Both the position numbers and the translations under genes were made by a program. Shown here one piece after another: positions 30,779 through 45,277 of a stretch of 64,000 nt of DNA. The notes under the pieces are model-generated. The model saw nothing but the letters and a program-made list of their open reading frames with translations, had not been told where the DNA came from and made no database searches. This DNA comes from Calditrichaceae bacterium. Lineage in GTDB: Bacteria > Calditrichota > Calditrichia > Calditrichales > JBFXGD01. The stretch lies in NCBI GenBank assembly GCA_050173015.1, contig JBFXLE010000017.1, forward strand, positions 30,806 to 94,805, in the 5' to 3' direction. Position 1 is the stretch's first letter; every line of letters starts with the position of its first letter.

Positions 30779-31636
30779 TTATCGGGCAATCTTGAGCACC
30801 TGATACGGATAGATCATATTCGGGTCATTGATTGTGCTCTTGTTGGCTTCATATAATTGCTGCCATTTAAACGAACTGCCGTACACATTTGAGTAGCCGG
30901 CGATTTTTGACAGATGCTCACCCTTTGCAACCAGGTGCTCATTCGGTCCCACAACTCTGGGAATCATAAAGACCTGATTCACATAAATCAAATCGGGATC
31001 TTTAATCTGATCACGGTTTGAAGTATAAATTCTCATCCATGCATAAGCATCGGCATAAATATCGGGTTTGGCAGCTATCTTCCAAAGATAATCACCTTTT
31101 TGCACGGTATATGACGGAGGTACCGCAGCCTTGCTCTTTTCTTCGGCCTGCGCAATTAAACTTTCGATTGAATTCAGCAACGCGGCATTTTCGCTTAATA
31201 ATGACAAATTATTTTTCTTTAATTCCGCGACTCGCGCCTTAAAAGCATTGAGTTCATTTGATTTTGAGTAAATTTCTTCCGGAGACATACTCAGGAATGC
31301 ATTTACATCAGTTTTTAATTTATTCACTTCACTAACATAGGCCTGATTACCGGCCTTATCCGATCCCGCTAAAGCGTAAATTTCATCCCAGGTATTATCG
31401 ATACCGGTCTGAGTATCGGTCAATTCCTGAGAAAGAGAGGCAATTTTAGTATCTTCCTCGGTAATACCGGTCTGTGCTGTCTGCAGTCTTTGCTGCCATT
31501 CTGCCAGATAAGCGTTATATTGTTCCTGAGTCATTTCCTCATAATTATAGGAAACCTGAGCAAATGCTGTATTAAAAGTTACTAACGCTACGAGCAAAAT
31601 TGACGCAAAATATAATTTTGTCAATTTCATCATCAC
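30779..31636 (-). CDS. Exported coiled-coil protein with two LysM domains
   Basis: Signal peptide (AFA-Q), coiled coil, YTVQKGDYLWKIA and HLVAKGEHLSKIA LysM repeats. Confidence 0.88.
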   Translation of the reverse strand: MMMKLTKLYFASILLVALVTFNTAFAQVSYNYEEMTQEQYNAYLAEWQQRLQTAQTGITEEDTKIASLSQELTDTQTGIDNTWDEIYALAGSDKAGNQAYVSEVNKLKTDVNAFLSMSPEEIYSKSNELNAFKARVAELKKNNLSLLSENAALLNSIESLIAQAEEKSKAAVPPSYTVQKGDYLWKIAAKPDIYADAYAWMRIYTSNRDQIKDPDLIYVNQVFMIPRVVGPNEHLVAKGEHLSKIAGYSNVYGSSFKWQQLYEANKSTINDPNMIYPYQVLKIAR

Positions 31637-31661
31637 AGTTCTCCTGTCTTATAATAAATAT

Positions 31662-31955
31662 TTATTTACCTGTACTCATTGCTGCGCGCTCTTCGACAGC
31701 TTTGGCAACTTTTTCTTTTTCAGCTTTAACTTTTTCAAGTTCAGCCTTTTTCGCACTTACTTTCGCTTCTAATTCCTGACGTTCGCCTTTTTTGTCAGCG
31801 AGTGTTTTTTCTGCAGCGAGGGCCGCTGATTTCGTCTCTTCCAATTGCTTAATTTCTTCTTCGCTCGGCTTCCATCCGCAACTCGTTACGGATAATACAG
31901 AGACAGTGAACAGCAATATCATGAAGAGATTAAACGACTTCTTTACTTTTCTCAT
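31662..31955 (-). CDS. Small coiled-coil lipoprotein
   Basis: Basic N-terminus, hydrophobic core, VTSC lipobox, Ala/Glu/Lys helix; GGAGG RBS. Confidence 0.8.
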   Translation of the reverse strand: MRKVKKSFNLFMILLFTVSVLSVTSCGWKPSEEEIKQLEETKSAALAAEKTLADKKGERQELEAKVSAKKAELEKVKAEKEKVAKAVEERAAMSTGK

Positions 31956-33893: not shown

Positions 33894-33920
33894 AAAAAAA
33901 AGCCGCTGAGAAGCGGCTTT
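33894..33920 (-). terminator. Intrinsic terminator closing the Agl/Glt-like cluster
   Basis: AAAGCCGCT-loop-AGCGGC followed by T8. Confidence 0.85.
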
Positions 33921-33947: not shown

Positions 33948-35033
33948 TTAACTGCTGAAAATATATTTTTGTCTGAAGGAAACATCTCCTTCACTTTCAT
34001 CAATTTTATCAAACCGCCATCTTCTGATTCTTGAGATGACACAATTTTCAACATTTTTATTCCGAATTGTCGAATCGATTATCCGGACATTTTCAACCCT
34101 GCCGTCGGCCTGGATTGAGAACTGAACAGTGATACTGCCTTTGAGATTGGGATTAATCCTTGATTCTTTTTTATAGCAGTTCTCGATCGCGTCCGCGTGT
34201 TTGGCAATAATTCTGCTGATCGCGTCTGCTGAACGGTTAGCTGATTTTGATCCTCTTCCCGAAACAGTTCCTTCTTCCATCTTAATGGCAAAGGAACCCT
34301 GACGCTTTATTGAAACAGAACCGCTTTGACCGACACCGCTCTGTACGAGATCATCAATTCCGGCGCCACCGGAACGATTTCCACCTGAGGACCGTGCTCC
34401 CAGCACAGATCTGCTCGCGCCCGAAGATGCCGTCTGCAATCCGCCTACGCTGCCCAGAACCTGTTCCAGGTCACCTACGCCGCCGCCGCCGCCGGAACCC
34501 AAAACATCGTAAACAGCATCACCTGAACCACCGCCGCCACCGGCCGAGAGTTCAGCCAAAATTCCGGAACCTGCCACTGCCTGCTCCATGGCCGCGCGCT
34601 GCGCTCCTCTTCTGGCCGCCGCTTCACGCCGCATATTTCTTCTTTCAGAGGCTGATGTACCTGTCGCTTCCGCGCGTTTTCCTTCGTCACGTTTTGCGCG
34701 CTCATCAACTTTTTCCTCAGGCTTTTCTTCTTCTCCCAAACCTGCTCCCAGATCCTCGGTTGTATCCTGTACAGGTTCTTCAAACTCTGCGGCATAAAAT
34801 TTTTGTATATATTTTCTTTTTATTTCTTTATCGATCAAGTCCTGCGGATACTCATGATTGGCTAAATATATAACCAGACCATAGATCAGTGCTAATGAGG
34901 CCAGAAGAATTGTGTAAAATCTTCTGTCGATACTTTCCCACACATTCCTTTCGAATTCTTTCGGGAAAGACACGAGTCGATAGCCACCTGCACCTGCCGG
35001 TCTTGATGCGCCCTGCACATTTGGTGTTTTCAT
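33948..35033 (-). CDS. TonB/TolA-like energy transducer with AgmX/PglI-type C-terminal domain (GltG-like)
   Basis: One N-proximal TM, charged helix, Gly-rich linker, C-terminal IENCYKKESRINPNLKGSITVQFSIQADGRV...VENCVISRIRRWRF. Confidence 0.82.
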   Translation of the reverse strand: MKTPNVQGASRPAGAGGYRLVSFPKEFERNVWESIDRRFYTILLASLALIYGLVIYLANHEYPQDLIDKEIKRKYIQKFYAAEFEEPVQDTTEDLGAGLGEEEKPEEKVDERAKRDEGKRAEATGTSASERRNMRREAAARRGAQRAAMEQAVAGSGILAELSAGGGGGSGDAVYDVLGSGGGGGVGDLEQVLGSVGGLQTASSGASRSVLGARSSGGNRSGGAGIDDLVQSGVGQSGSVSIKRQGSFAIKMEEGTVSGRGSKSANRSADAISRIIAKHADAIENCYKKESRINPNLKGSITVQFSIQADGRVENVRIIDSTIRNKNVENCVISRIRRWRFDKIDESEGDVSFRQKYIFSS

Positions 35034-35066
35034 TAACTCACCTTCTTGTAGTTTGATACAAATCTA

Positions 35067-35552
35067 TTAGCCTGCTTTAATCGTCAAGAGACGCATTTTA
35101 TAAAAATCTGATCTACTGCACGTAAACATCACCTTAAAAAGCAATTCGAAGGGAATTTTTTCATCCCCCTGGATAATCACCTCATGGGTGAATTCCTTAC
35201 CGATATCTATTTCGAGATCCCGTTCCTTCTGAGCATATTCAGCCAGCTTACTGAACAATGATGCTATGATCATCTGATCTTCCGGAATATCTGCAATCGT
35301 CGCGATTACATTATCGTTAACGAGAATTTCATCTTTCGATATCGAAACGCTTAATTCCTTTTTTGGCTTTTCACCCTGAACTGAAGTCGGTAATCTCAAA
35401 ACTTCCGATGGTGTAACCAGCGCCCCTTCTGTGGAAAACGATTTTAAAAGAAACAGAAGGATAATGGTCATCATGTCCATCATCGAGTTCATATTGAGAG
35501 TACCTTTTTCCTCTGCAAGGTGTTTCTTTGATTTTGACGGTTGGTAAGCCAT
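35067..35552 (-). CDS. ExbD/TolR family protein (AglS-like)
   Basis: LNMNSMMDMMTIILLFLLKSFS TM with conserved Asp26; IIQGDEKIPFELLFKVMFT. Confidence 0.88.
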   Translation of the reverse strand: MAYQPSKSKKHLAEEKGTLNMNSMMDMMTIILLFLLKSFSTEGALVTPSEVLRLPTSVQGEKPKKELSVSISKDEILVNDNVIATIADIPEDQMIIASLFSKLAEYAQKERDLEIDIGKEFTHEVIIQGDEKIPFELLFKVMFTCSRSDFYKMRLLTIKAG

Positions 35553-35577
35553 ATAATGAACGCTCCGTTATTGTCTT

Positions 35578-36129
35578 CTATAAAATACTGCCAAAATTTA
35601 TTTCGGGGAATAAGGGCAATATCGCATTTTCGTCTTCATAGGTTTGTGAGGTATCCATAATTTTGATGATAACCTGGTATTCGATTTCCCGGGAAGCCGT
35701 TATCACCGCGCGATTTTCGTCCTTGAAACCTTTTCCCTTTACTTTCTTTTTTATTTCGATAAGCTTTTCTTTTAGCTTATCATAGTCATACGTTCCGTCT
35801 TCTTTCACGGCAACTGTCGGACCGTCTCCTTCATCTCCGGCGAGTAAAGTCTGGGCATTGCCAATGGTTATACCATCTTTGGTAATCGCAATCTTTAACC
35901 CCAGCTTGAGTTCCTTCTCTTTTACTTCATTCTGTTCACCTTCACCGGCGCCAGCGTCTCCGACAGATTTACTTGGAGGCACATTTATTTCGATCACTCC
36001 AAGCTTTACCCATTCGGCGCTCGCGATAAGCAACGGAATCAGCACAACCATCAGATTCATGACAGGTCTGATATCCAGCTCCATGTCTACTTCTTCGCCT
36101 TTACGGCGAAGTGAAGGTTTATATGCCAT
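35578..36129 (-). CDS. ExbD/TolR family protein (AglQ-like), Asp-to-Asn variant
   Basis: ELDIRPVMNLMVVLIPLL TM; ITASREIEYQVIIKIMD. Confidence 0.85.
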   Translation of the reverse strand: MAYKPSLRRKGEEVDMELDIRPVMNLMVVLIPLLIASAEWVKLGVIEINVPPSKSVGDAGAGEGEQNEVKEKELKLGLKIAITKDGITIGNAQTLLAGDEGDGPTVAVKEDGTYDYDKLKEKLIEIKKKVKGKGFKDENRAVITASREIEYQVIIKIMDTSQTYEDENAILPLFPEINFGSIL

Positions 36130-36149
36130 TTTTTATTTTCCTTCGTCTC

Positions 36150-36809
36150 TTATCTGTTGCCGGTTATCAAGTTGATCAGTTTTACCAGATGTTCATCTAA
36201 TTCATCGATGATGGTACTTGTTTTGCTTGTGATATAAGTATAGACCATCAGAGTCGGGATCGCCACCATCAAACCAAATATGGTTGTATTCATAGCGGTT
36301 GAAATACCTTTGGCCAGAAGTTTACTTTTTTCTGATTCAGGAACACCCTCGCTACCCACGGCCGCGAATGAAAGAATAAGTCCATAAATCGTGCCCATCA
36401 AACCTGTCAGTGTCGCGACGTTTGCAAGCATTGAAAGATATCCGGTCCGTTCTCTCAATTTTGGAATAACTTCAAGAGTACCTTCGTCAACAGCATTCTG
36501 GATGGCTCTGAAATCAAGCGTTTCACTTTCATTGGCCCGTTTTAATCCACGCAGCACAACAAACGGCAGAGCTTTTTGCTTACCTTTTTCACATAATTCT
36601 ATTGCCCGTTCAATATTGCCTCCCGCAACCAGCTTTCTTACTTCAGTCATGAATTTATCAGCATTGACGTTTGAACGAACGACAATATAATATATTCTCT
36701 CAATCGAAATTGCAGCCGCTATAGCAGCAAACAAGGCGATCGCATACATGTAAAATGATCCTTCAGCACTAAGTGCGAATGCATCACCAAATTGAGTTAA
36801 GAATAACAT
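36150..36809 (-). CDS. MotA/TolQ/ExbB proton channel protein (AglR-like)
   Basis: Three TMs; ATLTGLMGTIYGLI and GISTAMNTTIFGLMVAIP. Confidence 0.92.
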   Translation of the reverse strand: MLFLTQFGDAFALSAEGSFYMYAIALFAAIAAAISIERIYYIVVRSNVNADKFMTEVRKLVAGGNIERAIELCEKGKQKALPFVVLRGLKRANESETLDFRAIQNAVDEGTLEVIPKLRERTGYLSMLANVATLTGLMGTIYGLILSFAAVGSEGVPESEKSKLLAKGISTAMNTTIFGLMVAIPTLMVYTYITSKTSTIIDELDEHLVKLINLITGNR

Positions 36810-36854
36810 AAACTAATCCCTCCTTAAAATCATTTTCAGCCTATCTAATGGTAT

Positions 36855-37187
36855 TTATTTATGCACATTTAATAATTGCTTGATGTTAATCTGATCTACC
36901 GGTTCTTTACTGTTTTTAAAATCGAATACAAATTTTTCACCTTCGCCGACAATCTCGCGGTAAAAGGATTTTTCGAGGTTTGTATCATCGAACTCTGGTT
37001 TTATTCGGTCGGAAAACAGGGTAACTTGAGGTTTTTCTATAGTTATTTTTATTTCGCTTACTTCCAGCTCAATCACATCATCGGTCGTCTGGTTTTGCGT
37101 TCTTACCTGCGGATTGTTCGTATCCTGCGCGAGGAGACCGCCCGCGAGCAAAAAACTCAAAATAATTACCAAAAAAACAACTCTCAT
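36855..37187 (-). CDS. Small exported protein, GltF/CglF-like
   Basis: Signal peptide; IKITIEKPQVTLFSDRIKPEFDDTNLEKSFYREIV resembles the KP...R...F...L...SF..I pattern recalled for GltF-family proteins; position between TPR and exbB genes. Confidence 0.55.
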   Translation of the reverse strand: MRVVFLVIILSFLLAGGLLAQDTNNPQVRTQNQTTDDVIELEVSEIKITIEKPQVTLFSDRIKPEFDDTNLEKSFYREIVGEGEKFVFDFKNSKEPVDQINIKQLLNVHK

Positions 37188-37199
37188 AAACCTATTCCT

Positions 37200-40100
37200 T
37201 TATTGATTGACAGAAATTCGGTTTTTATTCAATATATTAATATTTCTAAGTATCGAAACATCGACATCATATGTTTTTACTTTAGCTTTTTCTTGTGCCG
37301 CGGCGGTAATATCTGCAGGCAGGATATCGAAGGTTCCGTAGAATTTTAAACCGCCTGCCGTCAGATCTTTGTCTTCAACATCAATGGCGATTTGGTTTTC
37401 ACCGGGCTTCAGAAAAATATCGAAAGTATAGTAATCCAGCGTATCAAGTTTCGCGAATGAATTATCGCGGTCATCAATGATATATTCTCCATTCAGGTAA
37501 AACCTGAAATCATCATCGGCGGTAACATAGATTTCCCCGGACACGGGCGTTCCGTCCAGTTTGAATTCCTTTCTGAAAAATGCGACCGTATCCGCCGATA
37601 CTAACGCTGATGTGTCAACCACAACCAGGGTTGCGGATGTGTCCGGCTGCAGGGGAATCAAGTTTAAGGAATCGGCTGCGGCAAGAGTATCCGCGGTTTG
37701 CGTTGATGTGAGCGGAATCTGACGGACCCAGATTGCTTTGGGATTAATCCCAAGGGCCGCGAATTGATTATTATAATCCACCACTGTTTGAGGTTTAAAC
37801 CAGGTGGAATCATTAAACTCTGACCGTGTCCATTGATCCCCATAGTATTTCGTTGTATACATCCAGGATTCATCTGAGACAACAACAATTTTCTCTTTTT
37901 CAATGCTGGCCGAATAAGTAACCGGATCAAGCTTTATCAGCTTATAAAGAAGCTTATTCGCCCAAAGATTCTTAATATCATAATCCTGTCGAACCTTATA
38001 GGCATTTTCAAGTATGGACAATGAATTATCGTTAAATGAATAGTAGTAAGTTTCAAACATTACTTTCGCGTCATCAAAATTGTAATTTTCTGTTGAATCA
38101 AATTTCGTGGTGTAATTTTCACTGATCGTATTGGCGGAGTCCGCGAGCCCGCTCATGCGATCTGTTATTTCAACAGCGTAACGGAGAAGGCGGTCCTGCG
38201 TATTACGGACGATATCATTTTGAATCCCGTTTTCTTCTGCAAGCACTAAAGTTTTTGTGTATGATTCAATTATTTTTTCAGATAGAATTCGTGTAAAATC
38301 GATCATCTGGCTTGCGCTGTTGTCCAGCGCGTAATAGTCTTGTCCCTTTGCATTTAAGGTTCCAAATTCCTTCTCCACGAGATCCATCGTCTGGCGGGTG
38401 ATGGAATTATATTCACCCAATGCAACATCAACCAGTGACTCAAATTCCTCGGCAAGTATATTGGATGTTAACAGCACCTGACGCTTGGATTCTTCCACAT
38501 ATTTATTGGATAGACCCATCGCTTCCGCTTCTTTTATATTGCTCAGATGCGATTCAATTGTTTGCGCGATGGCTGGACTGACGGCCTGCTGGAACAACTG
38601 AACTTCGAATATAATTTTTGTCAAAGGTTCATCATTCGGCGGTTTTACGTCGAGCGCATAATATATATTTTCTGATGTAAGCGATGCCATTGTATACTGG
38701 AGTTCAGAAATTTTATCCCTGGCTTTTTCCTGAAATTTTACTCCCAACTCTCTGGTAGAGTCTCGTTCCGCCGCTCTTGTGATCGCTCCGGAAGTGTCAC
38801 CGACCGCCGGCTCGGTATCCATCGTTGAATCTGCCGAGGCGTAGAGATCTACTCCCAATTTTTCCGCGATAACAGGGATATTTGATACTACATTCTTATA
38901 TTCATCAACTGATTTTTGAAACAGAGCTGCTGATTGTTCGTTTATTCTCTTCTTTTCGATGAAAAACTTGTTTACATCCAGAGTCGGATCAATTTCCTGA
39001 GAAGCATAAATATGGGCGAATTCCTCATAACTTCTGGCCGTATTAAAAGTGGCTTCAAAACTACGGGGTGAACCGAAGGTCAGGACTTTTGAATAAGTTT
39101 TATTTAATTCAGTCAACAGTCCGCGCAAACGCTCCTGCTGATAGTCTATATTGCTTTTTGGCTGTGTAAGCTTGATAGATGTAAATTCGTTATGAAGGAT
39201 CCCGGCCAGCTTATTGACAGCTTCCCCGGCTATATAGGCGTTCGGGTCCTTCCCGCTATTTCTGAATAATTCACTTTTCTGGATGGCTTTATTGAACTCG
39301 ACTTTAGCAGCTGTTTCCTGCCCATTGTCAAGATAGTAGTTACCGCGTTCATAAAACGCAGTGACCGTTCTGGGATCATCCGGGTAGCGGGTTGCAAATT
39401 CTTCATATATACGGTTTGCTTCCGTGATATTGTCAGAATTCAGATATAGCTGCGCGTTTTTGAAATATAAATCAACCGAGTACGGTTGCGTCGGATACGC
39501 GGCGATATACATATTATTGACTCGGATAGCATCTAGCCATTCTTTGCCTTTTTCAAAATAGTAACTCGCGTTATACAATGCTATTTCAGCATTCTTGGAA
39601 TCTGTGTAATTCGTGTAAATTCTCTCATAAGTCTGCCCGGCATTCAAATATTGCTCAAGCTCTTTATAATCATCCGCCATATTTTCAAGAGCGTCGATAG
39701 CGAATTTTGACTCCGGATGCTGATTTGCCAGGATATCAAATGTTTCAATGGCTCTGACCCAGTCTTTGGCTTTCTGATAATTTAAACCGCCATTATAAAG
39801 GGCGCTCTCCACAAGCAGGGGATCATTTGCAACTTCATTATTTATACGTACAAATTCACCCGCCGCCGCGAAATAATCTCCTTGTTCGGAGAGAAATTCA
39901 GCATTCTTAAAAATGGCTTGTCCCAGACGCTTTTCGGCAAATACCCTCTGTTCATCCGGAATTCTGTCATCACTCATAATACGTTTAGCTATAATTTCGC
40001 TATCCTTGAATTTTCCGAGCGCGAAATACGAATCCATAATTGAGCGCAATGCCAGACTTTTCTCTTTTGCTCCGGGAAAACGCTTGACAAGGGTCTGAAA

Positions 40101-41957
40101 ATATACCTTTGCTTCGGCGAATTTTTTATGATTATAATAGATACCTCCCGATGCCGCGAGGAAATTCGGTGTAAATGAACCGGTTGGGAATAGTCTGATA
40201 TAGTTATCGTATGCTTCGATTAACCTTGTTTCTTCCGGTGTCAGGGATTCAGGACTGAGCTGCGCTATATCCGCGAAGTTAAACCGGACGGTATCCCCTT
40301 TTCCGTATTTAAGAACAACAAGTGTATCTGCTGCCTTTACCGCATTTAAGGCCGCCGCTTCCTGGTGGGAAGTTTCAAGATAATCGTTGCTGACTCTCAT
40401 ATATTCTTCAAAAGCTTCATCAAAACGCCCGAGTCTGCTGTCGAGCATAAACGCGTACGACCAGTTGATGTCATAGGCATTGGAATCTGTCGGGAACGCA
40501 TTTAGATAATCTTTACAATTTCCCGCGAAAACTTCATACTGCTCCGTACTGGCAAGTCCCTCTGAATTAAGTTGTTCAGCCTTCTCCAAATCAAGCAGAA
40601 TATTCGTCCGGAACGCGGCTTCAGCGATATCGTAAGCGGAATCAATATATTTAAGCTTGTCGGTTTTATCTGAAGTCTCTAATTTAGTGTACCATTCGGA
40701 ATCAGGATTATACATCCTGAATAATTTATCCCGTTCCTGGTAAGCATCGGTATCCCTGCCAAGTGAATAAAGCGCATTCACTATATTTTGCCTCATAAGC
40801 GGAGCTTCTTCGTAAAACGGATACATATCAAGCAGATTATTGAACGCGTACATGGCTTTATCCTGCTCGTCGATCTTTTGATAAGTCTGACCGACGGCGC
40901 GCATGATTTCAACACCATACTCCTTATCACCGAGACGTTCAAGCAGTTTTCTTGCCTTATCCACGCCATTCATCGTGTATGCTTCATCGGTAAAACTGAT
41001 ACCGATATACTCGATCGCTTCATCTCTTACATTGGGATTCGAGATTTTATCCGCGGGGTCCAGTTTTTTGGCGAGCGTAATATCATCGGCGACGGCCATA
41101 AAGTATGTAATCGCGTCATTATAGTATAACGGATCCCGCGCCGCCAGTTTATAATAACTCCATCCCAGCTTGTAAAGAGCTTCATCATAACGCTTGGAAT
41201 CGCTGTATTTTAAAACTTTTTTGTAAAGCTGAATGGCTTTTTTAAGCTCAACGATACCCTGTTCTTCATCATCTTTGTCATCACGGGGTGAGAAGTAATA
41301 CTCGGCCAGCTGGATATATGATTCCGGCGCGAACGGACTATCCGGGTACTTATCGATAACCTCCTGATACAGCCTGCGGCTCTCGTTGCCCCTCCGCATG
41401 CGTTCAAGCAGCCAGGCTTTACTGTAAAGAGCATCATCCGCGTAATCACTGGCCGGATACTCATCAAGTAAACGATCATACACTTCTATGCCTTTAGTGT
41501 AGTCGTGAACCGGGAAGGATGGCATCACAGGTTCTTCCTGAATCTCACCGGCATCAAAAAGAGCCAGTTTTTTCTCGTATTCCAGGATAGTATCATCATA
41601 TTTTTCAACCTGCTCATCGTAATTTCTATCGGCGTCCTCTATATAGTATTCAGCAATTCTTATGTATATATGATCTCTGTTTTCAACTTTGGCAGCTTTA
41701 TTGGTCAGAAAATCCTCGCCAACTTTCATCCCTTCGCTTCTGGACTTTTCTTCTTCTGACCGTAGTTTATTGACGTTTTGCTCATAATATTTTTTAATTT
41801 TAATCAATTCATCAAGATTAACTTTGTCAAATAGGCTGTCTCTTTTAGCATCGGTTTGATCTGCCTGTCCATAAACCGTTTGCATGGACATAAATCCGTA
41901 CAACAGCATAAGGATAAACAAACGGGTCAAAGACATTTTATTCATCATAGATTTCAT
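37200..41957 (-). CDS. Giant exported TPR protein (GltD/AgmU-like) with C-terminal jelly-roll sugar-binding-like domain
   Basis: Signal peptide, many TPRs (e.g. YPASDYADDALYSKAW, DEALYKLGWSYY); C-terminal FRKEF...TADDDFRFYLNG...LKPGENQIAI. Confidence 0.8.
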   Translation of the reverse strand: MKSMMNKMSLTRLFILMLLYGFMSMQTVYGQADQTDAKRDSLFDKVNLDELIKIKKYYEQNVNKLRSEEEKSRSEGMKVGEDFLTNKAAKVENRDHIYIRIAEYYIEDADRNYDEQVEKYDDTILEYEKKLALFDAGEIQEEPVMPSFPVHDYTKGIEVYDRLLDEYPASDYADDALYSKAWLLERMRRGNESRRLYQEVIDKYPDSPFAPESYIQLAEYYFSPRDDKDDEEQGIVELKKAIQLYKKVLKYSDSKRYDEALYKLGWSYYKLAARDPLYYNDAITYFMAVADDITLAKKLDPADKISNPNVRDEAIEYIGISFTDEAYTMNGVDKARKLLERLGDKEYGVEIMRAVGQTYQKIDEQDKAMYAFNNLLDMYPFYEEAPLMRQNIVNALYSLGRDTDAYQERDKLFRMYNPDSEWYTKLETSDKTDKLKYIDSAYDIAEAAFRTNILLDLEKAEQLNSEGLASTEQYEVFAGNCKDYLNAFPTDSNAYDINWSYAFMLDSRLGRFDEAFEEYMRVSNDYLETSHQEAAALNAVKAADTLVVLKYGKGDTVRFNFADIAQLSPESLTPEETRLIEAYDNYIRLFPTGSFTPNFLAASGGIYYNHKKFAEAKVYFQTLVKRFPGAKEKSLALRSIMDSYFALGKFKDSEIIAKRIMSDDRIPDEQRVFAEKRLGQAIFKNAEFLSEQGDYFAAAGEFVRINNEVANDPLLVESALYNGGLNYQKAKDWVRAIETFDILANQHPESKFAIDALENMADDYKELEQYLNAGQTYERIYTNYTDSKNAEIALYNASYYFEKGKEWLDAIRVNNMYIAAYPTQPYSVDLYFKNAQLYLNSDNITEANRIYEEFATRYPDDPRTVTAFYERGNYYLDNGQETAAKVEFNKAIQKSELFRNSGKDPNAYIAGEAVNKLAGILHNEFTSIKLTQPKSNIDYQQERLRGLLTELNKTYSKVLTFGSPRSFEATFNTARSYEEFAHIYASQEIDPTLDVNKFFIEKKRINEQSAALFQKSVDEYKNVVSNIPVIAEKLGVDLYASADSTMDTEPAVGDTSGAITRAAERDSTRELGVKFQEKARDKISELQYTMASLTSENIYYALDVKPPNDEPLTKIIFEVQLFQQAVSPAIAQTIESHLSNIKEAEAMGLSNKYVEESKRQVLLTSNILAEEFESLVDVALGEYNSITRQTMDLVEKEFGTLNAKGQDYYALDNSASQMIDFTRILSEKIIESYTKTLVLAEENGIQNDIVRNTQDRLLRYAVEITDRMSGLADSANTISENYTTKFDSTENYNFDDAKVMFETYYYSFNDNSLSILENAYKVRQDYDIKNLWANKLLYKLIKLDPVTYSASIEKEKIVVVSDESWMYTTKYYGDQWTRSEFNDSTWFKPQTVVDYNNQFAALGINPKAIWVRQIPLTSTQTADTLAAADSLNLIPLQPDTSATLVVVDTSALVSADTVAFFRKEFKLDGTPVSGEIYVTADDDFRFYLNGEYIIDDRDNSFAKLDTLDYYTFDIFLKPGENQIAIDVEDKDLTAGGLKFYGTFDILPADITAAAQEKAKVKTYDVDVSILRNINILNKNRISVNQ

Positions 41958-42001
41958 AATATTTTTTCCAAAATTGACAGTGTTTTTATGAATCGATCAA
42001 A

Positions 42002-44614
42002 TTATTCCTCAGAATCCCTTCTGATCACCGGTGGTACGGTCGTATTTTGTGTGCCTCTTGCTTCCGTCTCGTGAGTATCGAAATAAGATTCTTCAAACTG
42101 TCTGTTCAGCTCTTCTCTCTCACGAAGTCGTTCCTGCCGTCTCACCCTTCTGGTCATCAAAGTAATTTCACTCTCAATTAAACCAATCTTATGTTCAAGA
42201 TATTCTTTCCTTTCCATCAGGAAATCATTAATCTGTTCAATCTGTTTCTGCATATCGGAAATATCCTGCTCTTTGCTGTTTTTTATGGAAAAATTAACGT
42301 TTGCCACGCCAAATGCCCCATAATCACTCCAGCGACCCAGATTAATGTTGGAATGCATCATATCAAGGTTGTATGCCCATGATTCCAGATAGTCAAATTT
42401 ATTTAGCAACTCCGTAAATCTTTCTTTCTGGAGCTCCAGTTCCACTTCACGTTTATAATTTCGCGATCCTTTTGCCTTCTGAATATCCACATCGAGTTGA
42501 GAGATTCGCTTCATTATATTTTCATGCTCTAATCTCGACTCATCACGAAGCGATTGAATTTTCGCGTTCTCGCTTTCGATCACGCTTTCCTTTCTGGCAA
42601 GCGGATGTTCGTCAAAGTAATTAATGCCGAGAGGAGAATTTTCCTTCCCGGGAAAAGCATTTATCGAGCGATAGATCTTTAATTGTAAATCTTCAATTCG
42701 ATTCTTTATTTTCTTTTCGCCTTTTTCCTCGGCGATGACCTTCAGGCGGTCAAGTTCTTCGATCTGCTCATTCAACCGTTTTATTTCATTTTTCGCGGCA
42801 ATACCTTCCGAGCTGACATCAGAATAGGATAGTTCGATCAATGGTTTTTCAATTTTATCCTTCATCTCTCTGGCCTGGTAATACCCTGATAAGTTATTTG
42901 TCGCGAGCGATTTTTTCTCAAGATTATCCGCGACTCTGTAAGACGCGCGCATACGTTCCCGCTCTTCATTCATTCGGTCAGACAGTTCTTTTACATCCTT
43001 TGTACCGTAGGCGTATTCAAAATTATCAAGCGCTCCTCTGACATCTTCTTCGAGCTGGTTAATATATCCCAGCAGAGTGCGCGCTTCGAGATAATAATCC
43101 GATCCGTTAAAAGATTCTATAATCGCGTTCAGATAGAGTTTGGCCGTTGTAAAATCTTTTACTTCATCCGGTAATTTTTTGAGTTCAAGTTTATAATAGC
43201 TCCAGCCGTAGCCGATCAGAACACGGTCATACTTACTAAACTGTGAGCTTATCAGATCAAAATATCGGATGGCTTCATCAGCATTTCCTGTTTCATAACT
43301 CAGGTAACCCAGTTTTAACAATACGGCAAAACGAAACTCCGGATGCAGGCCGGAAATTGAAAGAAGATTTGTAAATTGCAGGATCGCTTCTTCGTAATTA
43401 TTGGCGCCGGCATAGGCCTCCGCAAGCAGGAATTTTGCCTGACGGGAATATTCCGATGCCTCGGAAATTTCATAAGCGTACTTTACCGCATTTTCATAAT
43501 CACCGCTTTTCAACCCTGCCATGGTCGCCAGAAGCAGCGTTTCATCATAATACGATTCACTTGGTGAAGAAATCACTTTCATTTTTTCAAAATATGTGAG
43601 TACATTTGAGTAATTATTAAAATGATAGGATAAGTAAATCAATCTTCTGTAAGCTTGCGCGGTATAAACGGAAGAAGGATATTTTTCAACCAGATTTTTA
43701 AATCCTTCGGCGGACTGACTATAACGCCCAAGCGCAAAATTGGATTCGCTTTGATAATAAAGGCAGTCATCAAGATTTCCAAATGTGCTGTATCTGTTTA
43801 ATATTTCTTCGAATGCTTTTTCCGCCAAATTATAAAATCCAAAATTATAAGCGTAAGCGGCCTGCCTTAGTTCATTCCTGAACATTCTCTTTTTTTGATC
43901 CGCGGTGGCATTCTTAATCAATCTGTTTTTTATGATCTGAATGTCTGTCCATCTCAGATGATATTTAAGCCTTTCGGTATGTCTCCACTCTTCATAAACA
44001 TCAAAAATAGTGGCGGATCCATCGCCGGCGGTACCGGTGGACATTCCCATTTCACCTGTCTCACCAAAAGACTGCACAAAACTGCTTTTTGTACGGTTAA
44101 GGCCTTTCACAAAACTGGGATTTTCCTCCAGACGGGCGCCGGTATCAAGTTTGGTCATTTCCTCGGCAAGGTACAGAAGCTGAATGGCATCTTCGATCAC
44201 CTTCTGCTTTTTGAAATCAATCGTGCCCGCCCGGATAGTCTCCTTGATCCTTCTCTGCAATTCATCAATAAACTGATTGAGCTTGGCGGAACTACCAGAA
44301 TTAAGTCTCTGTTTTAACGCCTGAATTTCAACAAGATGCTCCTGTAATCCTTCGAAATACTGATCGCGTATTTTTGAGGCATTCGTTACCCGGAATTTGA
44401 TTTCATTATTGATCAGACGAATCTGCTCTATAAGAAATCTTTCATTATGGATGCTCTCCTTACTCAGGTCCCCAATCATGCTATTTACATAAACCTGGAG
44501 GGCCTGATTAAATTCCAGATCAGTCTGTGCAGCATCCTGCGCGGCTGCGGGAAAGAATGAAATCAGTAAACAAAAGAAAATACCGGAAGCCAGAGAAAGG
44601 GTCTTTGAAATCAT
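42002..44614 (-). CDS. Exported TPR and coiled-coil protein (GltC-like position)
   Basis: Signal peptide (AAA-Q), central TPRs, long C-terminal coiled coil. Confidence 0.75.
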   Translation of the reverse strand: MISKTLSLASGIFFCLLISFFPAAAQDAAQTDLEFNQALQVYVNSMIGDLSKESIHNERFLIEQIRLINNEIKFRVTNASKIRDQYFEGLQEHLVEIQALKQRLNSGSSAKLNQFIDELQRRIKETIRAGTIDFKKQKVIEDAIQLLYLAEEMTKLDTGARLEENPSFVKGLNRTKSSFVQSFGETGEMGMSTGTAGDGSATIFDVYEEWRHTERLKYHLRWTDIQIIKNRLIKNATADQKKRMFRNELRQAAYAYNFGFYNLAEKAFEEILNRYSTFGNLDDCLYYQSESNFALGRYSQSAEGFKNLVEKYPSSVYTAQAYRRLIYLSYHFNNYSNVLTYFEKMKVISSPSESYYDETLLLATMAGLKSGDYENAVKYAYEISEASEYSRQAKFLLAEAYAGANNYEEAILQFTNLLSISGLHPEFRFAVLLKLGYLSYETGNADEAIRYFDLISSQFSKYDRVLIGYGWSYYKLELKKLPDEVKDFTTAKLYLNAIIESFNGSDYYLEARTLLGYINQLEEDVRGALDNFEYAYGTKDVKELSDRMNEERERMRASYRVADNLEKKSLATNNLSGYYQAREMKDKIEKPLIELSYSDVSSEGIAAKNEIKRLNEQIEELDRLKVIAEEKGEKKIKNRIEDLQLKIYRSINAFPGKENSPLGINYFDEHPLARKESVIESENAKIQSLRDESRLEHENIMKRISQLDVDIQKAKGSRNYKREVELELQKERFTELLNKFDYLESWAYNLDMMHSNINLGRWSDYGAFGVANVNFSIKNSKEQDISDMQKQIEQINDFLMERKEYLEHKIGLIESEITLMTRRVRRQERLREREELNRQFEESYFDTHETEARGTQNTTVPPVIRRDSEE

Positions 44615-44661: not shown

Positions 44662-44689
44662 AATTTAATATTATTTTATACCCAGTCAA
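44662..44689 (-). promoter_or_regulatory. Putative promoter for TPR/ExbBD cluster
   Basis: Minus strand TTGACT-16 nt-TAAATT in AT-rich intergenic region. Confidence 0.4.
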
Positions 44690-45162: not shown

Positions 45163-45207
45163 ATGATATCTCCCTATAGGTTCGACTGTTCCTGATAAAA
45201 CTTAAAT

Positions 45208-45237
45208 AAAAAGATGACGACATGAGTCATCATCTTT
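45208..45237 (-). terminator. Terminator-like hairpin between atpD and atpC
   Basis: AAAGATGATGAC-TCAT-GTCGTCATCTTT then TTATTT on minus strand. Confidence 0.55.
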
Positions 45238-45277
45238 CCATGATTTTTATTGAAATATATTGTACTGTATTCTATAC

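Follow-up and report, generated by a model that had tools for sequence, protein, structure and literature searches.

An Agl-Glt core-type operon without gltE at a fixed site beside the ATP synthase genes of Calditrichota

We analyzed a 64,000-nucleotide stretch of DNA from a Calditrichaceae bacterium (assembly GCA_050173015.1, contig JBFXLE010000017.1; hereafter the window), in which seven minus-strand open reading frames (ORFs) occupy positions 33948 to 44614. These very probably constitute an operon of the Agl-Glt core complex type, gltC-gltD-gltF-aglR-aglQ-aglS-gltG, and the identities of all seven parts were shown by homology of the predicted proteins. In Calditrichota and the phylum KSB1 the core is most likely a vertically inherited housekeeping envelope motor, judging from gene content and conservation. 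An envelope role other than gliding is probable, and we lean towards a pull-type motor that would act on an outer-membrane complex encoded elsewhere.

Identification of the gene products

The ORFs encode, in operon order, proteins of 870, 1585, 110, 219, 183, 161 and 361 amino acids (aa) and are separated by 12-45 base pairs (bp). An earlier note, made from the sequence alone, had described seven co-oriented, tightly spaced genes, and their positions, strand and sizes were confirmed. Its assignment of the genes to an Agl-Glt core also held: profiles match GltD, GltC and GltF in the two tetratricopeptide repeat (TPR) proteins and the 110-aa protein, and the ExbB groups with AglR-like proteins and not with the TolQ and ExbB proteins of its own genome. 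Branching with canonical ExbBD/TolQR, together with a lack of profile similarity in the TPR and 110-aa proteins, was what the note had said would speak against it.

Reference sets for GltC, GltD, GltE and GltF were taken from Anaeromyxobacter terrae and four other genomes, with no Myxococcus xanthus sequences; GltC and CglF exceed the NCBIfam cut-off in three of these five genomes. Rankings of profile matches within the present genome covered 11,175 ORFs. Residues 77-1025 of the exported 1585-aa TPR scaffold (37200..41957) correspond to GltD (hhalign probability 100%, E = 1.2e-82, 912 columns), and this protein is the top match of the GltD profile in its own genome (E = 1.4e-101). Its conserved tail consists of a helical bundle (approximately residues 1055-1345), which no Glt set matched, followed by a jelly-roll (approximately residues 1355-1547; 37317..37895, minus strand). 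In the structure model the jelly-roll has the fold of a GH2 sugar-binding domain, its top Foldseek matches being GH2 glycosidases (E = 2e-4, probability 1.0, identity 10-15%); PA14 and rhamnosidase-N matches, both weak, were each obtained in 1 of 13 members. A GltD-GltE fusion was considered for this protein and rejected, as the tail gave a probability of <3% against GltE.

The exported 870-aa TPR protein (42002..44614) was matched by hhalign to the myxobacterial GltC set at 98.9%, to the set from the GltC slot of cores at 99.8%, to GltD at 98.0% and to the GltE sets at 84.5-97.1%. The GltC-like block is the central TPR part only (approximately residues 236-565); the N-terminal part is helical and lineage-specific, the C-terminal helices are long, and the structure model is all-helical (pLDDT 80.5). 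The protein itself has no direct match to NF033756, and the top NCBIfam match of its KSB1 orthologue is gliding_GltC (E = 8.6e-16, under the cut-off). A 1217-aa TPR protein on contig C2 of the same genome, which also scores high with GltD profiles, was considered as a second Glt system and rejected, since its repeat matches are scattered and motor genes are not nearby.

The small exported protein of 110 aa (36855..37187) matches the GltF/CglF set (hhalign 95.2%, E = 2.8e-8, 49 columns), and no other ORF of the genome scores better with the GltF profile (E = 0.003) or with the profile built from the core slot (E = 1.9e-8). The CglF model matches just 2 of 15 members (E = 0.024), and an atlas search with the protein returned unnamed clusters only, all under 0.9. 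Most other cores have a small gene in the same slot, matching GltF at 97.8%, with the gammaproteobacterial set linked only indirectly. By these profile comparisons the previously unassigned extra gene of the core is a gltF homologue, an identification added by the present analysis. None of the operon's three exported proteins has a lipobox cysteine.

The last gene (33948..35033) encodes a GltG-like transducer of 361 aa, comprising a short cytoplasmic part, one membrane helix, an acidic, Arg- and Gly-rich linker and a two-Cys TonB-like domain with TonB_C similarity. The AgmX/PglI-type C-terminal domain proposed in the earlier note was recovered well above threshold (NF033768, 97 bits versus a cut-off of 40), with Cys286 and Cys331 invariant in 16/16 aligned relatives. 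The GltG model NF033760 is matched from position 322 to 631 of 650 (E = 1.4e-27, below the equivalog cut-off); because the match starts only at position 322, the FHA part is taken to be absent, as the note had suggested. Prediction of a complex between the C-terminal domain of GltG and the GltF-like protein scored 0.01.

Most genomes of the phylum show a second gltG match. In the present genome a stand-alone gene for a second TonB-like protein with an AgmX/PglI tail, above the cut-off and in variable neighbourhoods among relatives, lies on contig C19 (L055:9050-10066), and tandem or stand-alone additional gltG copies occur in some other Calditrichota (L052:14860-17206, L051:3179-4234 and L053:14500-16478).

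The proton-channel motor

The products of the three remaining genes, an ExbB and two ExbD proteins, exceed the Pfam cut-offs. The 219-aa AglR-like subunit of the MotA/TolQ/ExbB family (36150..36809) falls within a 93-row AglR-like group (SH-aLRT 97), outside of which lie the genome's own TolQ and two ExbB proteins. Its Thr171 occupies the site of a TolQ glutamate, and no glutamate is found there in 18/18 Calditrichota and 17/17 KSB1 rows. Searches of PDB sequences gave only generic TolQ, ExbB and TonB matches.

In the 183-aa ExbD at the AglQ position (35578..36129), Asn25 replaces the transmembrane aspartate, which is retained as Asp26 in the 161-aa ExbD at the AglS position (35067..35552; slots as in Luciano 2011, Table S3). 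The Asn/Asp pair is present in 18/18 Calditrichota loci. Elsewhere, where both ExbD proteins were detected, this site in the first one holds Asp at 23 loci and another residue (Asn, Ser, Cys or Ala) at 29. A gltG gene stands directly behind at 27 of these 29, as against 1 of the 23 Asp/Asp loci; kin are not independent in these counts. The sampled stand-alone motors of myxobacteria and Bdellovibrionota have Asp in both axle subunits. From these alignments we infer that the core motor is asymmetric, with a protonatable aspartate in AglS only; this, too, is added by the present analysis. Asparagine at the channel-aspartate site would be inactive, by analogy with ExbD, TolR and MotB mutants. If natural ExbB-type motors can work with just one acidic residue in the axle, this would bear on how ion flow is coupled to work in 5:2 motors. 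A reduced core-like cluster accompanied by barrel and Ig-like genes, with Ser in the first ExbD, was also seen on a Vibrio alginolyticus plasmid (L152:7178-14364).

Distribution, flanks and expression signals

The host belongs to Calditrichota, as do most named relatives of the 110-aa protein (two carry other labels). A gltG match was found in 85/86 genomes of the phylum, three of them weak (best E 1e-16 to 1e-11); at the level of orthologues the count is 82/86, including all 53 genomes with ≥90% completeness. Twenty regions were retrieved; the main gltG copy is at the centre of 18, and the remaining two surround stand-alone second copies. In 18/18 of the main-copy loci (families f2-f8) the seven genes stand in this order with atpC on one side and aspS on the other, and three of these loci have frame-split genes. 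For KSB1, an orthologous AglR was found in 49/61 sampled genomes; the full long layout is seen at 15/17 orthologous loci, the other two being reduced, and 12 have a downstream gene labelled aspS. Since the operon is shared by Calditrichota and KSB1, the system seems to predate their divergence. Flagellin, by contrast, is patchy (27/34 genomes) and was not found in the present genome. Near-universal retention beside the ATP synthase operon in Calditrichota and KSB1 argues for a basic envelope task.

In the window the operon is flanked by the ATP synthase operon and aspS. The candidate promoter and terminator of the earlier note were both recovered by scan. The sigma70-like promoter candidate, TTGACT-16-TAAATT, is at 44662..44689 (minus strand); the intrinsic terminator candidate is at 33894..33920 (minus strand), with its stem at 33899-33920. 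Taken alone the scans are weak evidence, with 51 promoter-like sites observed versus 31 in shuffled sequences and 11 terminator candidates versus 12.6. Both candidates gain support because they recur in relatives: a TTGxxx-16-TAAATT site is present in the corresponding gap of 5/15, and a hairpin of ≤ -8.9 kcal/mol with a T run lies downstream of gltG in 12/15. The gap to atpC is only 6-71 bp in families f6-f8, and a transcript shared with the ATP synthase genes is therefore possible there.

Two observations concern the flanks. A long hairpin lies between atpD and atpC (45206-45241, minus strand) and could uncouple atpC from the other atp genes. Downstream of aspS (30779-31955, minus strand) are two genes, whose products are a coiled-coil lipoprotein of 97 aa and a coiled-coil/LysM protein of 285 aa. 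They recur behind aspS at almost all Calditrichota loci and at several KSB1 loci; from their domains, the pair looks like a tether from the outer membrane to peptidoglycan.

Missing parts and other envelope systems

No gene for GltE was found in the operon and none above the cut-off in the genome, where only generic TPR matches were obtained. For outer-membrane barrels of the GltA/B/H type, TIGR04565 had no match in the genome and BLAST with myxobacterial barrels found none. Neither an FHA-bearing GltG nor a GltJ with cytoplasmic domains was found, the second AgmX-tail protein being short and stand-alone. The locus contains no tolB, pal or TonB-dependent receptor. On GltE, GltA/B/H-type barrels, tolB, pal and a receptor the earlier note was accurate. 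Its description of the machine as self-contained did not survive: the operon has no GltE, no FHA and no barrel and so is not self-contained, and the want of any outer-membrane protein or lipobox cysteine and the short atpC gap in families f6-f8 speak the same way. In contrast to many other cores, no outer-membrane gene is linked to this one.

Elsewhere in the genome are two ordinary ExbB-ExbD-TonB loci and a true Tol-Pal system on contig C22, with TolB and Pal above the cut-off. Upstream of the Tol-Pal cluster is a gene for an OmpA-family protein (L058:10431-12056), whose barrel resembles that of a KSB1 Glt operon. Genes for an MglA-like GTPase, a roadblock protein and a HAMP protein lie on contig C3 (L057:17381-18912); the GTPase is present in 23/23 genomes and is 83-93% identical. 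PilT is also present and could explain the MglA.

Proposed mechanism

The arrangement that we propose borrows the subunit contacts of M. xanthus, which come from an AlphaFold model (PMC11761067). One helix each of AglQ and AglS would be encircled by five AglR subunits, and the GltG membrane helix would sit on AglR, its linker spanning the periplasm and wrapping the GltD scaffold. The TonB-like domain of GltG would accept a strand of GltF by beta-sheet extension, GltF thereby connecting GltG to GltC. Because only AglS has a protonatable aspartate, there would be one proton path, and pull-and-release strokes of the TonB/Tol kind would be likelier than processive travel. No link to the cytoskeleton is evident, FHA, GltJ and GltE being missing (GltI was not searched), and the GltD scaffold may be braced against periplasmic glycan by its GH2-type domain. 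The stroke would then pass via GltC to an outer-membrane complex from another locus, whose task would be the assembly of outer-membrane or surface proteins and not locomotion.

The best candidate for that complex is a barrel family associated with porU and porV, for which a partnership with the core is conceivable but tentative. A tandem barrel pair on contig C6 is homologous to the barrel encoded at the head of a KSB1 Glt operon (E = 3e-16). At this locus (L190:6877-16704) porU-like, porV-family, lipoprotein and SLBB genes are followed by one or two barrels with C-terminal coiled coils. The family is present in 83/86 Calditrichota genomes and stands behind porU-like/porV-family genes in 16/17 loci. 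By language-model features it resembles Phenol_MetA_deg, a lead only, seen in 10% of one cluster's members. The barrel-headed KSB1 operon (L100, L122) was considered as an orthologue of the present operon and rejected, as comparison of AglR proteins made it a paralogue; the barrel link is consequently weakened and indirect.

Several points weigh against the reading of this operon as an Agl-Glt core motor working on such a barrel. The similarity of the 870-aa protein to GltC is restricted to the TPR block, and by whole-sequence E-value the generic 1217-aa TPR protein ranks above it with GltC profiles, leaving it second. The GltF match of the 110-aa protein is short. The ExbB tree is a quick version with an ingroup picked by similarity and four non-AglR rows on long branches. 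The argument from a single aspartate presumes that asparagine is inactive, and a modelled fold common to GH2 domains would not prove sugar binding by the GltD tail. Finally, none of the 17 orthologous KSB1 and 18 Calditrichota operon loci carries the barrel.

Alternative functions

Of the three functions suggested in the earlier note, energizing of secretion gained circumstantial support, while surface motility emerged as the weakest. In the form that we considered, the motor would replace GldLM/PorLM and energize a reduced type IX secretion system (T9SS), pulling substrates from SprA or handing them to PorV/PorU. Stated for both Calditrichota and KSB1, a GltE-less, one-aspartate core would power a second kind of T9SS via the barrels behind porU/porV. 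We regard either form as unlikely, although where SprA is present and GldLM cannot be detected the translocon must draw its energy from something else, and the Glt core is a candidate for this. SprA is nearly phylum-wide (85/86 genomes, 82 above the cut-off). GldM_1st was above the cut-off in 0/86 Calditrichota and 0/31 KSB1 genomes and GldL was found in 0/23 genomes, both in searches without a positive control; neither GldL nor GldM matched any of the seven operon proteins. The present genome holds PorU-like, PorV-family and PorW/SprE-like genes and proteins bearing a C-terminal domain (CTD), and the candidate barrel lies inside the porU-porV locus. SprA is present in both KSB1 genomes whose cores lack GltE and absent from three genomes that carry other cores, and Fibrobacter succinogenes has T9SS signals together with an induced core (PMC6851124). 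However, co-occurrence with SprA comes with every gene that is fixed in the phylum (MglA, for example, shows it in 23/23), cores exist in genomes lacking SprA, and the operon contains no T9SS gene. On contig C3 a separate ExbB-ExbD-ExbD-TonB locus, at a distance of approximately 30 kb from sprA, could serve instead. The sprA locus itself (L191:7967-14167) encodes SprA, two exported proteins and two PorV-like proteins. If true, the T9SS reading would assign a role to the core complex and connect the origins of the myxobacterial gliding motor with those of the secretion and gliding system of Bacteroidota.

That the operon is a minimal motor for gliding or surface motility, like the Agl-Glt machine of Myxococcus, is improbable. 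The seven homologous parts, the highly conserved MglA-like GTPase with its roadblock partner, and the flagellin not found in the genome would fit such a motor. Against it stand a GltG without FHA, the missing GltE and GltA/B/H-type barrel, and a second AgmX-tail protein that is short and stand-alone. The core is unlikely to drive motility according to Luciano 2011 (PMC3169522), which found it insufficient, and the sampled stand-alone motors are Asp/Asp, unlike the Asn/Asp pair here. The genome paper of C. abyssi mentions tumbling and flagellar and type IV pilus genes, and PilT could account for MglA here. Slightly less probable still is a dedicated TonB-like machine for binding or importing polysaccharide breakdown products, to which the GH2-type fold on GltD, the TonB_C similarity of GltG and a 1.2-1.7-fold rise of F. 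succinogenes core genes on cellulose (read as a cellodextrin importer) would lend themselves, but which has no linked receptor or glycosidase in 35 mapped Calditrichota and KSB1 loci, a constant position next to atp and aspS, two ordinary ExbBD-TonB loci already present, and in Fibrobacter only small changes, no receptor found by the authors, and a likeness drawn from published lists and not from sequences.

Comparison with known systems

Literature searches found no mention of a Calditrichota core, of the Asn/Asp pair or of a core energizing T9SS in titles or the openings of abstracts; most subscription journals were outside the search. The housekeeping motor proposed here shares its motor superfamily and a TonB-like C-terminal domain with Tol-Pal and TonB-ExbB-ExbD, from which it differs by the lack of TolB, Pal or a receptor in the locus and by its two unlike ExbD proteins and TPR scaffolds. 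AglRQS and GltC, D, F and G are homologous to those of the M. xanthus Agl-Glt and Agl-Nfs machines (PMC11761067, PMC3858216). Here GltA, B, H, FHA and, above the cut-off, GltE were not found (GltI, GltK and CglB were not searched), the motor genes are inside the operon, and the first ExbD has Asn.

The F. succinogenes cluster (Fisuc_1892-1897), a core for which Table S3 of PMC3169522 lists no GltE, likewise has an FCB-type host, with a GltC of 746 aa, a GltD of 1292 aa, an ExbB, two ExbD proteins and a 308-aa TonB-like GltG. We thus call the present operon a GltE-less variant. The matching genes (FSU_2397-2403) are mildly cellulose-induced, 1.2-1.7-fold (PMC6851124, PMC4619616), and are preceded by the OmpA-family gene FSU_2396; the two clusters were likened by gene lists and not by sequences. 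The earlier note was right that the host is non-myxobacterial and FCB-like, but such a core is not new, because of this Fibrobacter example.

The core published in 2011 (Group B genes, PMC3169522) contains gltC, D, E and G, aglR, Q and S and one gene without a found myxobacterial homologue; the composition given in the earlier note therefore stands as an Agl-Glt core but departs from the published list in gltE and the unassigned gene. The gliding motor of Myxococcus evolved from this proton-driven kind of core. A basal transport machine has been suggested as a possibility (PMC3858216). Nitrospirota and gammaproteobacterial cores (L134, L137, L147) are preceded by thioredoxin, DUF3570 barrel and ApbE genes. 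A cultured member of the phylum, C. abyssi, makes biochemistry possible. Like the present operon, the published core is a single cluster with gltC, gltD, a small extra gene, aglR/Q/S and a short gltG, in non-gliding hosts. The Calditrichota operon differs in lacking gltE, in its longer GltC and GltD with added domains, and in an extra gene that is unassigned there and GltF-like here; and whereas the published core is patchy, this operon is fixed phylum-wide at one chromosomal site.

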